A stretch of DNA of 33,569 nucleotides, taken from the IMG/VR virus record IMGVR_UViG_3300045988_135277, positions 1-33,569 of that record; one strand, written 5' to 3'. Each line of letters opens with the position of its first letter. The stretch's first letter is position 1. The DNA comes from a virus. Its lineage: Duplodnaviria; Heunggongvirae; Uroviricota; Caudoviricetes. The notes beneath the pieces were generated by a model. That model saw nothing but the letters and a program-made list of their open reading frames with translations, was not told where the DNA came from and did no database searches. The position numbers and the translations under genes are program-made. Of this stretch, positions 598-7,814 are shown in pieces.

Positions 598-660
598 TTT
601 AAAACTATAGTTGTTTTATCGTCAACAACAAAAGTTGTTTTGTTGGTTGTTATAGATATA
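598..660 (-). promoter_or_regulatory. PL-like promoter with OL-like operator repeats
   Basis: Minus strand reads TTGTTGACgataaaacaactatagTTTTAAA, a near mirror copy of the PR segment at 3152-3181 (gTTGTTGACtaaaaacaaccatagTTTTAAt); additional GTTGTT/AACAAC inverted repeats at 621-650. Confidence 0.5.
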
Positions 661-770
661 ACTGGTTGTATTTAAGATGGATTTATTTTGTGACTTGCAT
701 CGCATAGCGATAACTGAAGGGAGGTTGTGGTGGTTTTTCGAACGGTTTGTGTGATGAGGGGAGGGGACAA

Positions 771-796
771 AAGAAAACCCGGCGCGGTGGCCGGGT
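771..796 (-). terminator. intrinsic terminator closing the cI-distal cassette (tIMM-like position)
   Basis: On minus-strand RNA: stem CCCGGC/GCCGGG with 6-nt loop followed by UUUUCUUUUG; lies 9 nt after the stop of ORF 805..1707. Confidence 0.6.
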
Positions 797-804
797 GCAA
801 ATGA

Positions 805-1707
805 TTAAATTTCTGAGTACAACGCGATAGGTTCTATGAAAAACTCATTTTCTGTTGGTTTACAGAACGTTGACTCGATATTTGCTAATGCATCATTCAT
901 GTTCCATGCTGCACTTCGTATATCAATCATTGCTCTTTCTGAGTCTGTATTATTGATTGTATCTTTACCTGATTGCGTTACTATACCAACAATAGTAAAT
1001 TCTCTGGTCGTTTTTCTGGAGTATAGTTTCACTAACATTTCTGGCGTTAGCTTTAAAAATCCCCGAATTAAGAAAGATGTAAATTTGTAATCATTAATTT
1101 TTTGTGATATTTCAAGCTCATCTCCATAAGCATAATTTAAAACAATTGATAGGTTGTCAAAGAAAGCTTTTTTGTTTTTCATGGCACTTTCTTTTATTTG
1201 TTCTAATAAATTATCGCGAAGTATTTTTAAATCTTTTTTTACATTTGGCTTTGCTGTCTTATCAGAAATCAAGATGTCAATATTTTCTAATTCATCATGT
1301 TTGTGAACATAATGAATAGCATATCCAAGGTCAGTAAAATTTTTAGTGGTATCTTTTAGTTTTTTATAATCATTAATTTCAATAGCACATTTTATTTTTA
1401 CGAATTGTCCTGATTCAATCTCCTCTGGATAAAAATCCCCAGAGGAGATTGATTTGATGAGTCCTCTATGAAACAGTTCTTTTTCAAATTTCAAGTAATG
1501 GTAGTCATGCGGGTTTATAACAGTCGATAGCTTATTTGTATCACTAGTATTACTAGATTTTGTCTGCGTTTTGACCTCGACCGCATCAGAGTTTGATAGC
1601 GTTGATGCCTGCTCTTCTACGGCTGATTGAACAACTCCTTCGAATAACTGTGAACTGAGGGAGTAAACTTTTTCGTAATCAATGTAAATTATATTTTTTA
1701 ACGACAT
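805..1707 (-). CDS. hypothetical soluble protein, 300 aa (cargo in rexA/bstA slot)
   Basis: Long ORF on same strand as cI; conspicuously AT-rich; no family recognised by eye; followed by terminator. Confidence 0.8.
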   Translation of the reverse strand: MSLKNIIYIDYEKVYSLSSQLFEGVVQSAVEEQASTLSNSDAVEVKTQTKSSNTSDTNKLSTVINPHDYHYLKFEKELFHRGLIKSISSGDFYPEEIESGQFVKIKCAIEINDYKKLKDTTKNFTDLGYAIHYVHKHDELENIDILISDKTAKPNVKKDLKILRDNLLEQIKESAMKNKKAFFDNLSIVLNYAYGDELEISQKINDYKFTSFLIRGFLKLTPEMLVKLYSRKTTREFTIVGIVTQSGKDTINNTDSERAMIDIRSAAWNMNDALANIESTFCKPTENEFFIEPIALYSEI

Positions 1708-1718
1708 AGTAATACCTG

Positions 1719-1901
1719 TTATCGATATCTAAGTGCTTTTGCTTTCTCGGCAAAATGCTCACTATTTTTCTTTCTTATGTTTTCAATGGACGCTAGTGCG
1801 TCTTTATATTTTTTGAGGTTATTTCTTGAGAGAAATGCAAGATATACAGGAATGATAACTGTTATTATAAAGAGCAAGATCATTAAATAATACATAATCA
1901 C
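1719..1901 (-). CDS. small single-pass membrane protein (~58-60 aa)
   Basis: ORF track; N-terminal hydrophobic helix (YYLMILLFIITVIIPVYLAF) then charged tail; likely ATG start at 1895, 2 nt from stop of upstream gene, 11 nt before start of downstream gene. Confidence 0.5.
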   Translation of the reverse strand: MIMYYLMILLFIITVIIPVYLAFLSRNNLKKYKDALASIENIRKKNSEHFAEKAKALRYR

Positions 1902-2356
1902 TCCTTGGTTAAAATATCATTATTTATAATAGCACATTGAACGGAGTTTTGTCCAATATATAGCGATATTAAGCATGTAATTATTACTAGTATCTTGGTG
2001 AATGTTAAATCCAAAAGTTCCTCTGCCAACATGCTTATTATGTATATAGTAGAGAAAATCACTATAAAAATAATGGAGAAGGTTGTATTTACTATGAATT
2101 TATTTTCACTTTTGAAACTCGGTTTACCAATGCCAAAGTAAATGCTTGATATTTGTATGGCGAAACCAAAGCATACTAACTCAGTAATATTAAAAAGCTC
2201 AATGTCTTTTTTTATAATCATGAATGAAATCAATCTAATTATAATTGGGATCGCACCAACTATAACTGTCCCACACCACCACTTAAAATAATCAGCATGT
2301 ATATTTCCATTCATTGTAATGGCTTCCGTTTTTCCTATAAATATACGCTCATACAA
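1898..2356 (-). CDS. hypothetical integral membrane protein, ~4 TM segments (152 aa; possible later start at 2314)
   Basis: ORF track; four hydrophobic stretches; first gene downstream of cI on same strand; AT-rich. Confidence 0.7.
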   Translation of the reverse strand: MYERIFIGKTEAITMNGNIHADYFKWWCGTVIVGAIPIIIRLISFMIIKKDIELFNITELVCFGFAIQISSIYFGIGKPSFKSENKFIVNTTFSIIFIVIFSTIYIISMLAEELLDLTFTKILVIITCLISLYIGQNSVQCAIINNDILTKE

Positions 2357-2416
2357 TTTGTCCCGTGGCCAACTATATTTGGCCTATCTCACAAACACAT
2401 AACATTAGCAATAAAA

Positions 2417-3106
2417 CTACCCATGCTTCCTATACGTCTGCGGCATGCTTCCAATGACTTTCCCGAAGATAAACACCCGGTTCATCTCGTCTTTCTCGAT
2501 CGGGTCCCACGGTGAGTAGCTCTTGTTATCAGAGATGACCAGCAGCTTATCCTTCATCATTTGCAGGCGCTTTACATGGGCTGTGTCGTCGTACAGAAAC
2601 GCATAGATACCATCACCGTCGAAAGATTTAACTGTGATATCAACGAACAGCAGATCACCAGGTTCGATCGTTCCTGACATGCTGTCACCACGCACGTTAA
2701 TGATGCGGATATTTTCCGCCTTCCTACCATCGAACATGTGACGAGCATCGTCAAACGAGTACTCAACCGAGCGTAGAACTTCTACAAACTCACGGTTGAT
2801 GACTCCCGGCCCGGCACTGACTTCTATATCAAGAACGTCAATTTTGAAGTATTTGGAATGGCTGACAGTTGATTGTATTGGTTGCACTGTACTGTCTGAC
2901 ATATTTCCAACGCCAGAAGATAACCATTCTGCGCGCACACCCAAAGCGTTCGCGATCTCCACGATTTTAGTTGTTTGGTTAGCTTTCCCTGTTTCGATTT
3001 TCTGAATAGCAGCCTGGCTAACCCCGACCAAATCCCCAAGCGCCTTTTGTGTAAGGCCTCGCGCTAATCTGGCTTCTTTAAGTCTTTCTGAGAGTGTTGT
3101 TTTCAT
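2417..3106 (-). CDS. cI: CI-type prophage repressor (N-terminal HTH, C-terminal LexA/S24-like autocleavage domain)
   Basis: N-terminal HTH motif (LTQKALGDLVGVSQAAIQKIETGK), C-terminal GDSM serine and downstream Lys typical of S24 peptidase fold; divergent to cro across an operator-bearing intergenic region. Confidence 0.92.
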   Translation of the reverse strand: MKTTLSERLKEARLARGLTQKALGDLVGVSQAAIQKIETGKANQTTKIVEIANALGVRAEWLSSGVGNMSDSTVQPIQSTVSHSKYFKIDVLDIEVSAGPGVINREFVEVLRSVEYSFDDARHMFDGRKAENIRIINVRGDSMSGTIEPGDLLFVDITVKSFDGDGIYAFLYDDTAHVKRLQMMKDKLLVISDNKSYSPWDPIEKDEMNRVFIFGKVIGSMPQTYRKHG

Positions 3107-3210
3107 AGATCAAATGTACAACCAAGGTTTTATTTCATCAAACGAAAATGGTTGTTGACTAAAAACAACCATAGTTTTAATCTTGATTCGGATTAACCAC
3201 GGAGGTTGTT
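3107..3210. promoter_or_regulatory. OR operators with PR (-35 TTGACT 3155-3160, -10 TAATCT 3178-3183) and PRM region
   Basis: Divergent cI/cro intergenic region; palindrome TGGTTGTT-N7-AACAACCA overlapping -35/-10; GGAGG RBS before cro ATG. Confidence 0.6.
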
Positions 3211-3441
3211 ATGAACCCAGCAATCAAAACAGCGATCAATATCGTTGGTTCACAAAAGAAACTAGGCGATGCCTGCGAAGTTTCACAGCAGGCCGTCTAT
3301 AAGTGGCTTCACAACAAAGCAAAGGTATCCCCTGAACATGTCGGCAGCATTGTTACGGCTACTGGTGGAGTTGTGAAGGCATACCAGATTCGCCCGGATC
3401 TTCCGAAGTTGTTTCCACACACCGAAAAGAACGCAGCTTAA
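3211..3441 (+). CDS. cro: Cro-like HTH regulator (76 aa)
   Basis: Small HTH protein transcribed divergently from cI immediately after PR; RBS GGAGG. Confidence 0.85.
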   Translation: MNPAIKTAINIVGSQKKLGDACEVSQQAVYKWLHNKAKVSPEHVGSIVTATGGVVKAYQIRPDLPKLFPHTEKNAA

Positions 3442-3453
3442 ATTTCCATTTCA

Positions 3454-3466
3454 CGCTCTTTAACAA
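3454..3466 (+). promoter_or_regulatory. boxA-like element (nutR-type antitermination site)
   Basis: CGCTCTTTAACAA matches the boxA consensus; located between cro and the next gene as nutR is in lambda; no convincing boxB hairpin identified. Confidence 0.45.
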
Positions 3467-3510
3467 TAAGCAATCAACTTAACAGTCAATTCAAACTAAA
3501 GGAGTCAATT

Positions 3511-4050
3511 ATGCAACCACTTACATACCAACAGACTAGCGGATTTATTCCGACTGCGGTGATAAATCGTTCTCAAACAAAACAAGCTCCAGGCCACGAA
3601 AAAATCCGTGATGCCGTCCGCGCCTGGTCGGCTGTAGATAATCAGGATGTCGTTGCCGCACTCATTGTGAATGAGTATCGGGAGCAGGGCGACGGCACCA
3701 TCGATTTCCCTGATGATGTCAGCCGTGCACGCCAGAAGCTGTTCCGCTTCCTCGATAACAAATTCGATTCTGAAAAATACCGAAATAACGTGCGTGAACT
3801 GACCCCGGCAATTCTGGCGGTACTACCGCTGGAATATCGCGGCCACCTGGTTGAGCAGGATAGCTTCATGGCTCGGCTGGCTGAAATGGAAAAGGAACTC
3901 AGTGAGGCAAAACAGGCTGTCATTCTCAACGCACCACGCCACCAGAAACTGAAGGAGATGAGTGAAGGCATTGTGTCGATGTTTCGTGTGGACCCGGATC
4001 TGGCTGGTCCACTGATGGCGATGGTCACCAACATGCTGGGGGCAATATGA
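3511..4050 (+). CDS. hypothetical protein in the cII slot (179 aa; possible lysogeny regulator, family not recognised)
   Basis: ORF track; RBS AAGGAG upstream; position between cro and O. Confidence 0.75.
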   Translation: MQPLTYQQTSGFIPTAVINRSQTKQAPGHEKIRDAVRAWSAVDNQDVVAALIVNEYREQGDGTIDFPDDVSRARQKLFRFLDNKFDSEKYRNNVRELTPAILAVLPLEYRGHLVEQDSFMARLAEMEKELSEAKQAVILNAPRHQKLKEMSEGIVSMFRVDPDLAGPLMAMVTNMLGAI

Positions 4051-5066
4051 CAGGTTCGGAAATGGCGAAAGCCGGTCTGCGCGAACAGAACCGACTTTCA
4101 GGTGCAAATCGTAACACACTCATTGCGGGAGGAATTATGGCAAACACTGCTGAGATATTCAATTTTCCAGTGCCGGATGTGGCACAAAAGGAGCCGCGCG
4201 TGGCAGATCTCGATGATGGTTATACGCGCATTGCAAATGAGTTGCTGGAAGCTGTGATGCTGGCCGGATTAACACAGCACCAGCTTCTGGTCTTCCTGGC
4301 TGTCATGCGCAAAACATATGGCTTTAATAAAAAACTGGATTGGGTGAGCAACGAGCAACTTTCCGAGTTGACCGGGATATTGCCGCACAAGTGTTCTGCT
4401 GCAAAAAGTGTTCTGGTAAAGCGTGGGATTCTTATTCAGAGCGGGCGGAATATCGGCATCAATAATGTGGTCAGTGAATGGTCAACATTACCCGAATCAG
4501 GTAAGAAAAATAAAGTTTACCTGAAAGAGGTAAATTTACCTGAATCAGGTAAGAAAAGTTTACCCAAATCAGGTAAAGGCACTTACCCGAATCAGGTAAA
4601 CACAAAAGACAAACTAACAAAAGACAATATAAAACCTTATTCGTCCGAGAATTCTGGCGAATCCTCTGACCTGCCAGAAAACGACCTTCCTGTGGTGAAA
4701 GCGGATGCTGCGATTCAGAGCGGCAGAAAGTGGGGGACAGCAGAAGACCTGACCGCCGCAGAGTGGATGTTTGACATGGTGAAGACCATCGCGCCATCAG
4801 CCAGAAAACCGAATTTTGCAGGGTGGGCTAACGATATCCGTCTGATGCGTGAACGTGATGGACGTAACCACCGCGACATGTGTGTACTGTTCCGCTGGGC
4901 CTGCCAGGACAACTTCTGGTCCGGTAACGTGCTGAGTCCGGCCAAACTCCGCGACAAGTGGACCCAGCTCGAAATCAACCGGAACAAGCAACAGGCTGGC
5001 GTGACAGTCGGCAAACCAAAACTCGACCTGACAAACACTGACTGGATTTACGGGGTGGATCTATGA
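4047..5066 (+). CDS. O: replication initiator O-like protein (iteron-binding N-domain, lambda-type C-terminal region)
   Basis: Contains internal iterons (ori) as lambda O does; immediately upstream of and overlapping lambda P; N-terminal region has O-like motif LLxxxLxxxQxxVLLAxxRKTYGxNK. Confidence 0.9.
   Translation: MTGSEMAKAGLREQNRLSGANRNTLIAGGIMANTAEIFNFPVPDVAQKEPRVADLDDGYTRIANELLEAVMLAGLTQHQLLVFLAVMRKTYGFNKKLDWVSNEQLSELTGILPHKCSAAKSVLVKRGILIQSGRNIGINNVVSEWSTLPESGKKNKVYLKEVNLPESGKKSLPKSGKGTYPNQVNTKDKLTKDNIKPYSSENSGESSDLPENDLPVVKADAAIQSGRKWGTAEDLTAAEWMFDMVKTIAPSARKPNFAGWANDIRLMRERDGRNHRDMCVLFRWACQDNFWSGNVLSPAKLRDKWTQLEINRNKQQAGVTVGKPKLDLTNTDWIYGVDL
4489..4600 (+). repeat. ori: five ~19-bp iterons TTACC(C/T)(G/A)AATCAGGTAA(G/A) inside O, followed by AT-rich stretch 4601-4650
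   Basis: Direct repeats at 4489-4506, 4516-4534 (degenerate), 4535-4553, 4558-4577, 4582-4600, each internally palindromic (TTACC...GGTAA), ~22-23 bp apart; encode repeated PESGK peptide in O. Confidence 0.75.
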
Positions 5067-6311: not shown

Positions 6312-7814
6312 TTAAATTGCATCTGCAAACTCTGGGGTTTTTCGCTCAGGTATAATTGATGAGTTGTTGTTGTCACTTTTTTTATTTTCATGATTACGAA
6401 TAGCCAATGACTCATTAAAGTCTTTTGCGACTGCTGTCTCAATAAATTCAATTTCTGAATCAGAGTGTTTTTTAAGAGCTTCTTTGATCTCATCCAGAGT
6501 AACATAGAAAAACTCTTTTCTACGATTTACAAGATTGACTCTCTTTTTATCGAAGACATCATGTAGTTTTTTTTCTAATGATGGAGCGTCCTCCGAATAA
6601 ATCATAGCATGCACATCAAAAATAAATGGAACAGATGCATCACCGAGCTCATTTACACGGTCTTGCGGATCAAGACGTCGTGTCATGCCTATTTTATAAA
6701 CATTCTCCCCAAAAGAACCTATGTTCGAAATAATATAAACATGACCTTGTTTGGTTTGTTGTGCCATGGATAATGCTCTTTGATGCTTTGATTCAGCCTG
6801 CGACAAACTCTGTTCTAGTTCGGCAATGCGATTTTCGAGGCGTTGCTTCATGTCACCAGTAACTTTTTCCATTTCCTTTCTTGCAGCTTCAATTGCTTTT
6901 TTATAACGGCGCTCTTCTGCCTCTGCGTCTTGCATGGCCTTTTCTATTTCTCGTTGTGCACGCTCCTCCTCTCTCATTTGTGCCCTTATTTCTGCCTGTT
7001 CTTCTTTTTCTTTCTGTTTTTGCTCACGATATTCATGGGTAAGCCACAATTCCTCAAGTTTTTTATTGAGGTATTTAGTGTTTATATATATGTGATTTTG
7101 CTCGTTTAGTTTATTTATGGCCTCAAATGCCTTTGTGATGCGTTCTTCCATTTTAGTGATATTTTTCCACGTGCAATTGCTAATTGCAGCATCACATTCA
7201 TTATTAAATGCTCTAGTAGTTAACCTGATATTTCTGTCTGTCATTTTTTTACCCTCTGCTCGAGAGCCTTCAACAGTCCATTGGGTTGTACAATATACTG
7301 CGCCAGAGTGGGTTTTATCCCGCAGCATTAATTTCTGTTCATCCCTGATGGATTTTATTTTGTTTTTAAATTGCTCTGAATCTTCAAAATTAAAATGAGG
7401 TTCGTAAAATCCTAGCTCGGCTAGCTCAACATCTTCTGAATAAATAGAAATTTGCCTTACTAGTTTATCATATATTTCTTTCTTCTCTTTATAAGTTCTT
7501 CTTAGCTCTTGGATTTGTTTATTGATACCATCCATTTTTTCAATGGTGTTTGTTAGTTCATTATTGGCATTTTCTTTTGCTTTTTGGGATTCTTCTTTTA
7601 TTATGGAGCATTCTTGCTCTGTTTTCTCAATAAGCTTCTTACATTCTTCTTCTACATTAAAATAATCTGCAAAGCGAGATTTGTATTCTTCATTTTTTTG
7701 ATTGCTATCACTTAATTCTAATTGTATTTTTTTGATGCGTTTGATTGCAGCTATATAAAGAACAAGAACAACCAATAAAAATATGATTGCAAGTAATAGT
7801 GGAGTTTGAGTCAT
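6312..7814 (-). CDS. membrane-anchored coiled-coil protein with C-terminal T5orf172 (GIY-YIG-like) domain, 500 aa (DUF4041-like architecture)
   Basis: N-terminal TM helix (LLLAIIFLLVVLVLYIAAI), ~300 aa K/E-rich heptad-like region, C-terminal motif GHVYIISN...YKIGMTRR...PF...LH..F...R...EFF matching T5orf172 consensus; antisense, AT-rich, flanked by ~250 and ~425 bp noncoding DNA. Confidence 0.9.
   Translation of the reverse strand: MTQTPLLLAIIFLLVVLVLYIAAIKRIKKIQLELSDSNQKNEEYKSRFADYFNVEEECKKLIEKTEQECSIIKEESQKAKENANNELTNTIEKMDGINKQIQELRRTYKEKKEIYDKLVRQISIYSEDVELAELGFYEPHFNFEDSEQFKNKIKSIRDEQKLMLRDKTHSGAVYCTTQWTVEGSRAEGKKMTDRNIRLTTRAFNNECDAAISNCTWKNITKMEERITKAFEAINKLNEQNHIYINTKYLNKKLEELWLTHEYREQKQKEKEEQAEIRAQMREEERAQREIEKAMQDAEAEERRYKKAIEAARKEMEKVTGDMKQRLENRIAELEQSLSQAESKHQRALSMAQQTKQGHVYIISNIGSFGENVYKIGMTRRLDPQDRVNELGDASVPFIFDVHAMIYSEDAPSLEKKLHDVFDKKRVNLVNRRKEFFYVTLDEIKEALKKHSDSEIEFIETAVAKDFNESLAIRNHENKKSDNNNSSIIPERKTPEFADAI

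Follow-up and report, generated by a model that had tools for sequence, protein, structure and literature searches.

What is the function of three small, AT-rich genes that lie directly behind the repressor gene of a phage genome, in the place that rexA and rexB occupy in lambda? These genes, here designated A, B and C, were found on the minus strand of IMG/VR virus record IMGVR_UViG_3300045988_135277, whose 33,569 nucleotides were analyzed as a whole and are referred to below as the window. A preliminary description of this DNA had noted three packed minus-strand open reading frames (ORFs) that follow cI and combine membrane components with a cytoplasmic one. The ORF list and the conservation of the operon both agree with the first point, and the second also holds, with A and B predicted to be membrane proteins and C soluble. 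Our analysis suggests that the cassette most likely encodes a system that is related to Dodola through its DUF6414 protein and is built differently, with two membrane proteins as its putative effector. Its recurrence in prophage immunity regions and defence islands most likely makes it an anti-phage candidate, and we consider a role in anti-phage defence probable.

Protein C links the cassette to a described family. It matches Pfam DUF6414 (PF19952) with 64.3 bits, above the gathering score of 25 (E = 2e-17), and the match spans the entire profile (positions 1-283 of 283; residues 3-297 of protein C). RefSeq likewise names it DUF6414 family protein, and its relatives score 70-86 bits against DUF6414. 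None of the three proteins had been assigned to a named family at first, which stands for A and B, neither of which matched any family above threshold, but has to be revised for C. In PHROGs, protein C matched phrog_9699 (8.7e-09), a PHROG of unknown function; no match was found in PADLOC or NCBIfam. The family of protein C is modest in size: an exhaustive profile search counted 1059 clusters (50% identity) up to E = 0.001 and 309 up to E = 1e-30.

Protein C has no hydrophobic segment according to hydropathy analysis, in agreement with the 300-aa soluble protein originally described, and its isoelectric point (pI) is 5.5 (family median, 5.3). The AlphaFold model of C, built with 45 homologues (pLDDT 81, pTM 0.72), contains an OB-like beta-barrel formed by strands of both chain ends, a three-helix insertion (residues 114-193) and a disordered loop (24-62). 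Because the family is acidic, the OB resemblance is not read as evidence for general nucleic-acid binding. A Foldseek comparison of this model with PDB and BFVD gave no match at E <= 0.001, and a PDB sequence search with the protein C profile returned nothing below E = 0.15. An N-terminal YSLSSQLFEG motif and several acidic residues are invariant in the family.

Literature on DUF6414, PF19952 and WP_023568614 offered nothing beyond one review statement. DUF6414 has been reported to be one of the two proteins of Dodola, the other being ClpB-like. Dodola (DolA/DolB; Millman et al. 2022) protects against SPP1 and dairy streptococcal phages; the preprint version of the study by Millman et al. does not yet use the name. 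Both Dodola and the A-B-C cassette have a DUF6414 (PF19952) core protein of ~300 aa, form a small operon and occur in defence islands. They differ in the partner, which is a ClpB-like ATPase in Dodola and here a four-helix membrane protein together with a single-pass microprotein, with no ATPase. Only A, B and C are present between cI and pL, and neither Clp nor AAA_2 families figure in the lists of 25 families drawn up for the upstream and the downstream flanking genes. A profile search of a 5.8-billion-protein set listed 120 matches, all of the A-B-C subfamily and none of DolA type. When 45 members of the C family were scanned with PADLOC (E up to 1), scattered weak matches were obtained, none of them to DolA, a model whose presence in the set is unconfirmed. 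Since there is no PADLOC match to DolA and no ATPase, and DolA-type sequences were not reached, these proteins would represent a separate DUF6414 subfamily with a different architecture.

To investigate the distribution of the trio, we scanned GTDB, with one genome per species, using patterns from the alignment of C. The 75 loci detected belong to Gamma-, Beta- and Alphaproteobacteria, Bacteroidota, Cyanobacteria, Chloroflexota, Poribacteria, Lachnospiraceae, Treponemataceae, Ignavibacteria and others, and the A-B-C operon is present across more than ten phyla. A single-sequence search with protein A reached Enterobacterales only, owing to a word-index limit; a local hidden Markov model (HMM) of A run over the loci reached further. 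With this HMM, 86 of the 90 genome loci proved to contain a homologue of A that ends 120-190 nt upstream of C, and A is likewise upstream of C in 49 of the 50 IMG/VR viral contigs that carry C. In most related loci the gap between A and C holds an ORF of 40-64 aa with one hydrophobic helix, and this B ORF usually overlaps both of its neighbours, at the stop codon of A on one side and at the start codon of C on the other. Of the four genome loci without A, one lies at a contig edge, one is a C-terminal fragment, one is degraded, and the last, locus L064, is discussed below. A search of 72,556 plasmids with C (tblastn) gave no match. The product of C was found to be 100% identical (tblastn) in another IMG/VR contig, UViG_2558860288_000010.

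Within Enterobacterales, A and B recur as ORFs beside C in every relative examined, including an E. coli variant (57% identical), Klebsiella pasteurii, the Klebsiella/Raoultella group, Enterobacter ludwigii, Buttiauxella and Pantoea. Synonymous sites are at or close to saturation when these copies are compared, and amino-acid change is limited. Nonsynonymous divergence (pN) is 0.13-0.23 for A against a synonymous divergence (pS) of 0.60-0.85 (dN/dS 0.06-0.16), and 0.16-0.29 for C against a pS of at least 0.80; protein B is under weaker constraint than either (dN/dS 0.2-0.64). Judged by this conservation, A, B and C are shown to be real genes that form one translationally coupled operon.

The same operon is easily overlooked in annotated genomes. 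NZ_CP019961.1 (E. coli HKUOPY1, from a giant panda) is 100% identical to window positions 700-2500, and its RefSeq/PGAP annotation contains C only, with A and B absent. A and/or B are also missing from the gene calls of several other assemblies (loci L006, L009 and L098). Because gene callers miss A and B, catalogues made from annotated proteins show C as a lone or orphan DUF6414 gene, which is all that automated defence discovery based on such proteins would see.

Which component senses and which one acts? One genome locus bears on this question. In L064 (positions 3406-4963; an uncultured cyanobacterium, metagenome-assembled genome), a 199-aa Mrr_cat protein with a restriction endonuclease fold overlaps the start of C and replaces A/B, which looks like an effector swap, observed in a single case. 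DUF6414 would be the constant sensing part because its partner varies: most loci pair it with A/B, Dodola pairs it with a ClpB-like ATPase, and L064 with an Mrr-type nuclease-domain protein. A/B would be the effector because these variable partners look effector-like and because the helices of A carry near-invariant charged residues. We therefore lean, at slightly under an even chance, toward C as sensor or adaptor and A/B as membrane effector. In the lysogen the trio would be expressed from the cI transcript, which would continue downstream through all three genes, and C would act as a cytoplasmic sensor or adaptor of heterologous phage infection. It would then act on A/B, possibly via the basic cytoplasmic tail of B, and A would conduct ions or disrupt the membrane, resulting in abortive infection. 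The basic tail of B facing the acidic C is a plausible, if speculative, contact. Such a system would follow the operating logic of RexA/RexB without being homologous to them.

The opposite polarity is the main competing explanation. Kiwa consists of a small multi-pass membrane protein, KwaA, and a cytoplasmic protein of ~300 aa, KwaB. If the cassette worked in a similar way, A/B would be a membrane sensor of attachment, DNA injection or envelope perturbation, and C would be the cytoplasmic effector that A/B set free or switch on, for example by binding phage nucleic acid or protein via its OB-like barrel. A small four-helix membrane protein next to a soluble protein of ~300 aa is indeed the Kiwa layout, both systems occur in defence islands, C is the largest and most conserved of the three components, and B has a weak match to KwaA. 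However, this NCBIfam match (17.7 bits against a cutoff of 100) was obtained with B only, lies in its hydrophobic helix and is far below threshold; Pfam detected no DUF4868, the KwaB signature, in C, and PADLOC found no Kiwa. In addition, C is acidic and has no recognizable catalytic motif, and the DUF6414 partners in Dodola and L064 look like effectors (an ATPase and a nuclease), suggesting that DUF6414 senses. We consider a Kiwa-like polarity unlikely.

The preliminary description had counted four hydrophobic segments in the first protein. Four helices are indeed present in the AlphaFold model (7-33, 43-62, 67-96 and 103-137; pLDDT 65), but hydropathy supports three strong segments, the second helix being weaker and amphipathic. 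Multiple alignment of 76 unique sequences revealed conservation of W12, T16, G20, P23, R27, D/E45, F49, G50, S56, S80 and S117, with P23 invariant and R27 (97%), D/E45 (93%), G50 (99%), S80 (96%) and S117 (97%) nearly so. Conserved charged and polar residues are thus found inside the helices, among them an Arg in helix 1 that is close to invariant and, where helix 2 begins, an Asp/Glu. Searches with A against Pfam, PADLOC, NCBIfam and PHROGs gave only sub-threshold matches, from NCBIfam and PHROGs.

Protein B has one strong N-terminal transmembrane helix (hydropathy) and a basic helical tail, with a net charge of +6.6, which agrees with the single-helix protein of ~58 aa first described. Its homologues outside Enterobacterales contain the motif W-S-I-x-D-T-R-K-K-Y-Y. 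Family searches with B gave weak matches to PycTM, SAVED_TM, KwaA, holin and spanin-like families, all of them sub-threshold and located in the hydrophobic helix. Neither Phage_holin_6_1 (15.9 bits against a cutoff of 24.9; E = 0.017) nor phrog_4349 (E = 0.024) reached its threshold, and no holin or membrane toxin family was matched above threshold (DUF4381 in Pfam, 17.3 bits against a cutoff of 27.2).

These weak holin and spanin-like matches, the tight coupling of the genes and their location in mobile AT-rich cargo would fit a toxin-antitoxin or addiction module, or one that modulates the choice between lysis and lysogeny. Its main task would be to stabilize the prophage or island, or to tune induction, and not to defend, and B or A would be a holin-like membrane toxin restrained by C. 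RexA, too, influences the lambda switch, according to PMC11077077. On the other hand, the matches are sub-threshold and fall in a low-complexity hydrophobic helix, and many copies of the operon are located at non-mobile chromosomal sites between housekeeping genes, where addiction would have no obvious beneficiary. Toxin-antitoxin and abortive-infection defence are also not mutually exclusive. On balance, an addiction or switch function is quite improbable.

In all Enterobacterales cases the trio is located directly after a prophage repressor and in the same orientation. The repressors vary (S24-type proteins of 229-251 aa or a short HTH protein of 127 aa), and so do the host prophages, some of which are lambda-like with O/P and others Rac-like with RecE/RecT. 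A homologue was found in one of 50,697 deposited phage genomes, that of the 186-like Vibrio phage 10N.286.54.E4_PE001 (PQ189350), whose locus is included in table 1. Among 31 unique genes located upstream of the operon on the same strand in IMG/VR, HTH_3 (11), Peptidase_S24 (8), Cro-like (3) and 186-type CI (1) proteins were found.

Outside phages, one flanking gene per side (the longest) was surveyed. Upstream neighbours (67 loci) include Type ISP (4), Type I HsdR (4), GmrSD (3) and HNH (3) genes, several DNA methyltransferases and AAA_21 (2); downstream neighbours (55 loci) include AAA_21 (3), PIN_8 (2), Schlafen (2), STAND-type NTPase (2) and KAP (1). Many copies are present at non-mobile chromosomal sites between housekeeping genes. 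It might be asked whether the cassette is a non-defence accessory, such as a small membrane transporter or a stress module with a cytoplasmic regulator, that rides insertion-tolerant hotspots. No family match ties A or B to defence, and most sampled neighbours are non-defence genes, as this explanation would have it. It is nevertheless the least probable of those considered here: restriction and defence genes are enriched among the neighbours, the unit has been captured repeatedly and independently behind repressors of unrelated temperate phages, C shares its family with a validated defence component, and the same prophage carries PD-Lambda-1 in another cargo slot.

Repressor-linked membrane proteins of prophages are a classic exclusion design. 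The two small membrane protein genes in the immunity region of temperate phages could accordingly serve envelope superinfection exclusion, in which A/B would block phage DNA entry at the inner membrane in the manner of SieA, Imm or HK97 gp15, with C as an accessory and without cell death. However, the operon is common outside prophages and occurs in phyla with very different envelopes (Bacteroidota, Cyanobacteria, Chloroflexota, Lachnospiraceae). A strictly conserved cytoplasmic partner of 300 aa is not seen in known injection blockers, and DUF6414 works with a cytoplasmic ATPase in Dodola. Exclusion of this type thus seems improbable.

The position of the cassette could be defined by comparison with lambda. 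A region at the left edge of the immunity region mirrors the divergent promoter-operator region to the right of cI (inverted repeats I1, I2 and I9, with one pair of 19 nt at 95% and two others), and was assigned to pL/oL. This mirror copy places the cassette between cI and pL within the immunity region, at the site that rexA, rexB and tImm take up in lambda, as had been proposed from the gene order; pL/oL marks the left edge of both the immunity region and the cargo slot. Similar to RexA/RexB, the cassette is located downstream of cI with a terminator before pL, it combines a soluble protein of ~280-300 aa with a four-transmembrane protein of ~140 aa, and it is presumed to be expressed in the lysogen. 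It differs in its order (membrane-membrane-soluble, the reverse of rexA-rexB) and in its third component. Homology with RexA/RexB was rejected (hhalign probability ~0.1%), in line with the earlier view of a non-homologous occupant.

The cI-to-pL slot proved to be a genuine hotspot for cargo. Of 5426 complete E. coli genomes, 1836 share this cI and its flanks and one has the cassette, and other genomes with the same cI/cro/kil-gam-bet flanks (L094, L095 and L096) carry PDC-S42 (313 aa, 3e-86), DUF7946/DUF7947 (287 aa) or an unassigned 170-aa protein in this slot. The paper on BstA describes the cI-to-N region as a mosaic hotspot with rexAB and bstA. The notion of lambdoid hotspot cargo thus holds for the site, but the unit itself is not lambdoid-specific, since it spans many phyla as well as chromosomal defence islands. 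BstA, PDC-S42 and DUF7946/7947 are encoded, as is the cassette, directly behind the repressor gene of lambdoid prophages; each of them is a single protein, unrelated in sequence to A, B or C. As the preliminary description had assumed, the cassette is not BstA: PADLOC gave no match for A or C, and for B only the weak PycTM and SAVED_TM ones. A protein with a LAPAL motif is annotated in the cI-to-pL slot of other genomes.

Several points weigh against a DUF6414-centred defence system with A/B as its effector. An anti-phage phenotype, expression and interaction are all predictions from genes and context, and co-transcription with cI is predicted from the short distance and the lack of a terminator between the genes. 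Sensor and effector might also be the other way round; the argument from partner exchange consists of one locus (L064) plus Dodola, and the model of protein A is of low confidence (pLDDT 65). The acidic character of C weakens the idea of non-specific nucleic-acid binding by its OB-like barrel. The link to Dodola is shared Pfam membership and a literature statement, not a direct comparison with DolA; proteins A, B and C match none of 5027 PADLOC models, and DolA is absent from the matches of all 45 family members. Finally, only about one-quarter to one-third of the sampled neighbours are recognizable defence genes, and many are housekeeping genes.

A wider and more doubtful proposal, which we offer tentatively, is that DUF6414 is the common sensing core of a modular immune class with interchangeable effectors. 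The A/B device would be its largest branch, repeatedly wired to the repressors of unrelated temperate phages, and the E. coli cassette would be a new form of membrane-acting abortive infection, convergent with RexAB. If the cassette protects against phage, a three-component, membrane-coupled architecture would be added to the DUF6414/Dodola family in E. coli, for which genetic tools, a lambda-type prophage background and phage panels are at hand, and a microprotein of 40-60 aa would be an obligatory conserved part of a defence operon. The cassette would also be the second, non-homologous pair of cytoplasmic sensor and small membrane effector on a cI transcript, which would help to explain why the cI slot is favoured, a question that is open after 60 years of work on RexAB.

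The features of the locus are listed in table 1.

Table 1. Coordinates of the A-B-C cassette and its surroundings (window positions unless a locus is named)
Feature	Coordinates	Strand	Description
cI-type lysogeny repressor	2417..3106	minus	229 aa; Pfam Peptidase_S24 (1.2e-18) and HTH_3 (5.4e-13)
cI-to-A spacer	2315..2416	minus	102 nt
Gene A	1898..2314	minus	138 aa; integral membrane protein, four predicted helices
Gene B	1719..1895	minus	58 aa; single-pass membrane microprotein
Gene C	805..1707	minus	300 aa; soluble DUF6414 protein
Intrinsic terminator	767..796	minus	stem 796-777, 7 pairs, 6 G-C, then TTTCTTTTGT
pL/oL promoter-operator region	599..641	minus	inverted-repeat pairing with pR/oR at 3140-3180
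Vibrio phage PE001 locus	L092 2767-5987		186-type CI, 9-nt gap, A 147 aa, B 60 aa, C 305 aa, integrase; all annotated hypothetical

The start codons of A and B were assigned as follows. The maximal ORF of gene A (1898-2356) begins with TTG and encodes the 152 aa first reported. Because all 17 homologues in the alignment of A begin at the ATG at 2314, the shorter product is most likely the correct one. For gene B, whose maximal ORF (1719-1901) starts with GTG and encodes 60 aa, the most likely start is the ATG at 1895, which has a Shine-Dalgarno sequence (AAGGAG) 5 nt upstream and lies 2 nt past the TGA stop of gene A. The gaps of 2 nt between A and B and 11 nt between B and C agree with the 2-11 bp originally given.

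In RefSeq the cI-type repressor is labelled an XRE family regulator. The repressor transcript most likely runs into the cassette: the terminator scan found no minus-strand intrinsic terminator in the cI-to-A spacer, and co-transcription fits this lack together with the short spacing, which is as little as 9 nt between cI and A in relatives. An internal promoter was considered and rejected, as the sole candidate in the spacer overlaps the ATG of gene A and the region contains 11 promoter-like sites against 9.6 expected by chance. The spacer also contains a perfect 6-bp hairpin (2384-2367, minus strand; GGCCAA-ATATAG-TTGGCC) with no U-tract, which might serve in the processing or stability of the RNA or might have arisen by chance. 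At the other end, the previously noted terminator was recovered, with a T-run following its stem; it ends the cI-A-B-C transcription unit and is the positional analogue of lambda tImm. The stretch at 700-795 has a 92.7% identical counterpart in lambda-like phage genomes.

The AT-richness pointed out at first was borne out by measurement: the GC content of the cassette is 30.9%, compared with 47.2% for cI and 50.6% for the whole window. All host genomes checked are less AT-rich than the cassette, and a copy in Stenotrophomonas has 43% GC in surrounding DNA of 66%. It looks horizontally acquired.

Several additional observations were made in the window. Its comparison with NZ_CP019961.1 in the region of ~3100-4050 shows gene coordinate shifts of a few to 39 bases between cI, cro and a ydaT-like gene, and the window may stem from an assembly that differs slightly. 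On the minus strand, the ~280 nt at 321-598, between pL and a kil-like gene (115-321), hold no convincing gene and no evident N-like antiterminator ORF; at the equivalent position a Buttiauxella relative carries an N36 gene. Rfam, scanned over the entire window, yielded no match. Another AT-rich cargo gene (29-37% GC) is located on the minus strand downstream of O, P and ren, at 6312-7814. Its 500-aa ORF, hypothetical in RefSeq, matches PADLOC PD-Lambda-1 with E = 9.5e-198, and the prophage therefore has at least one recognized defence gene in another slot.

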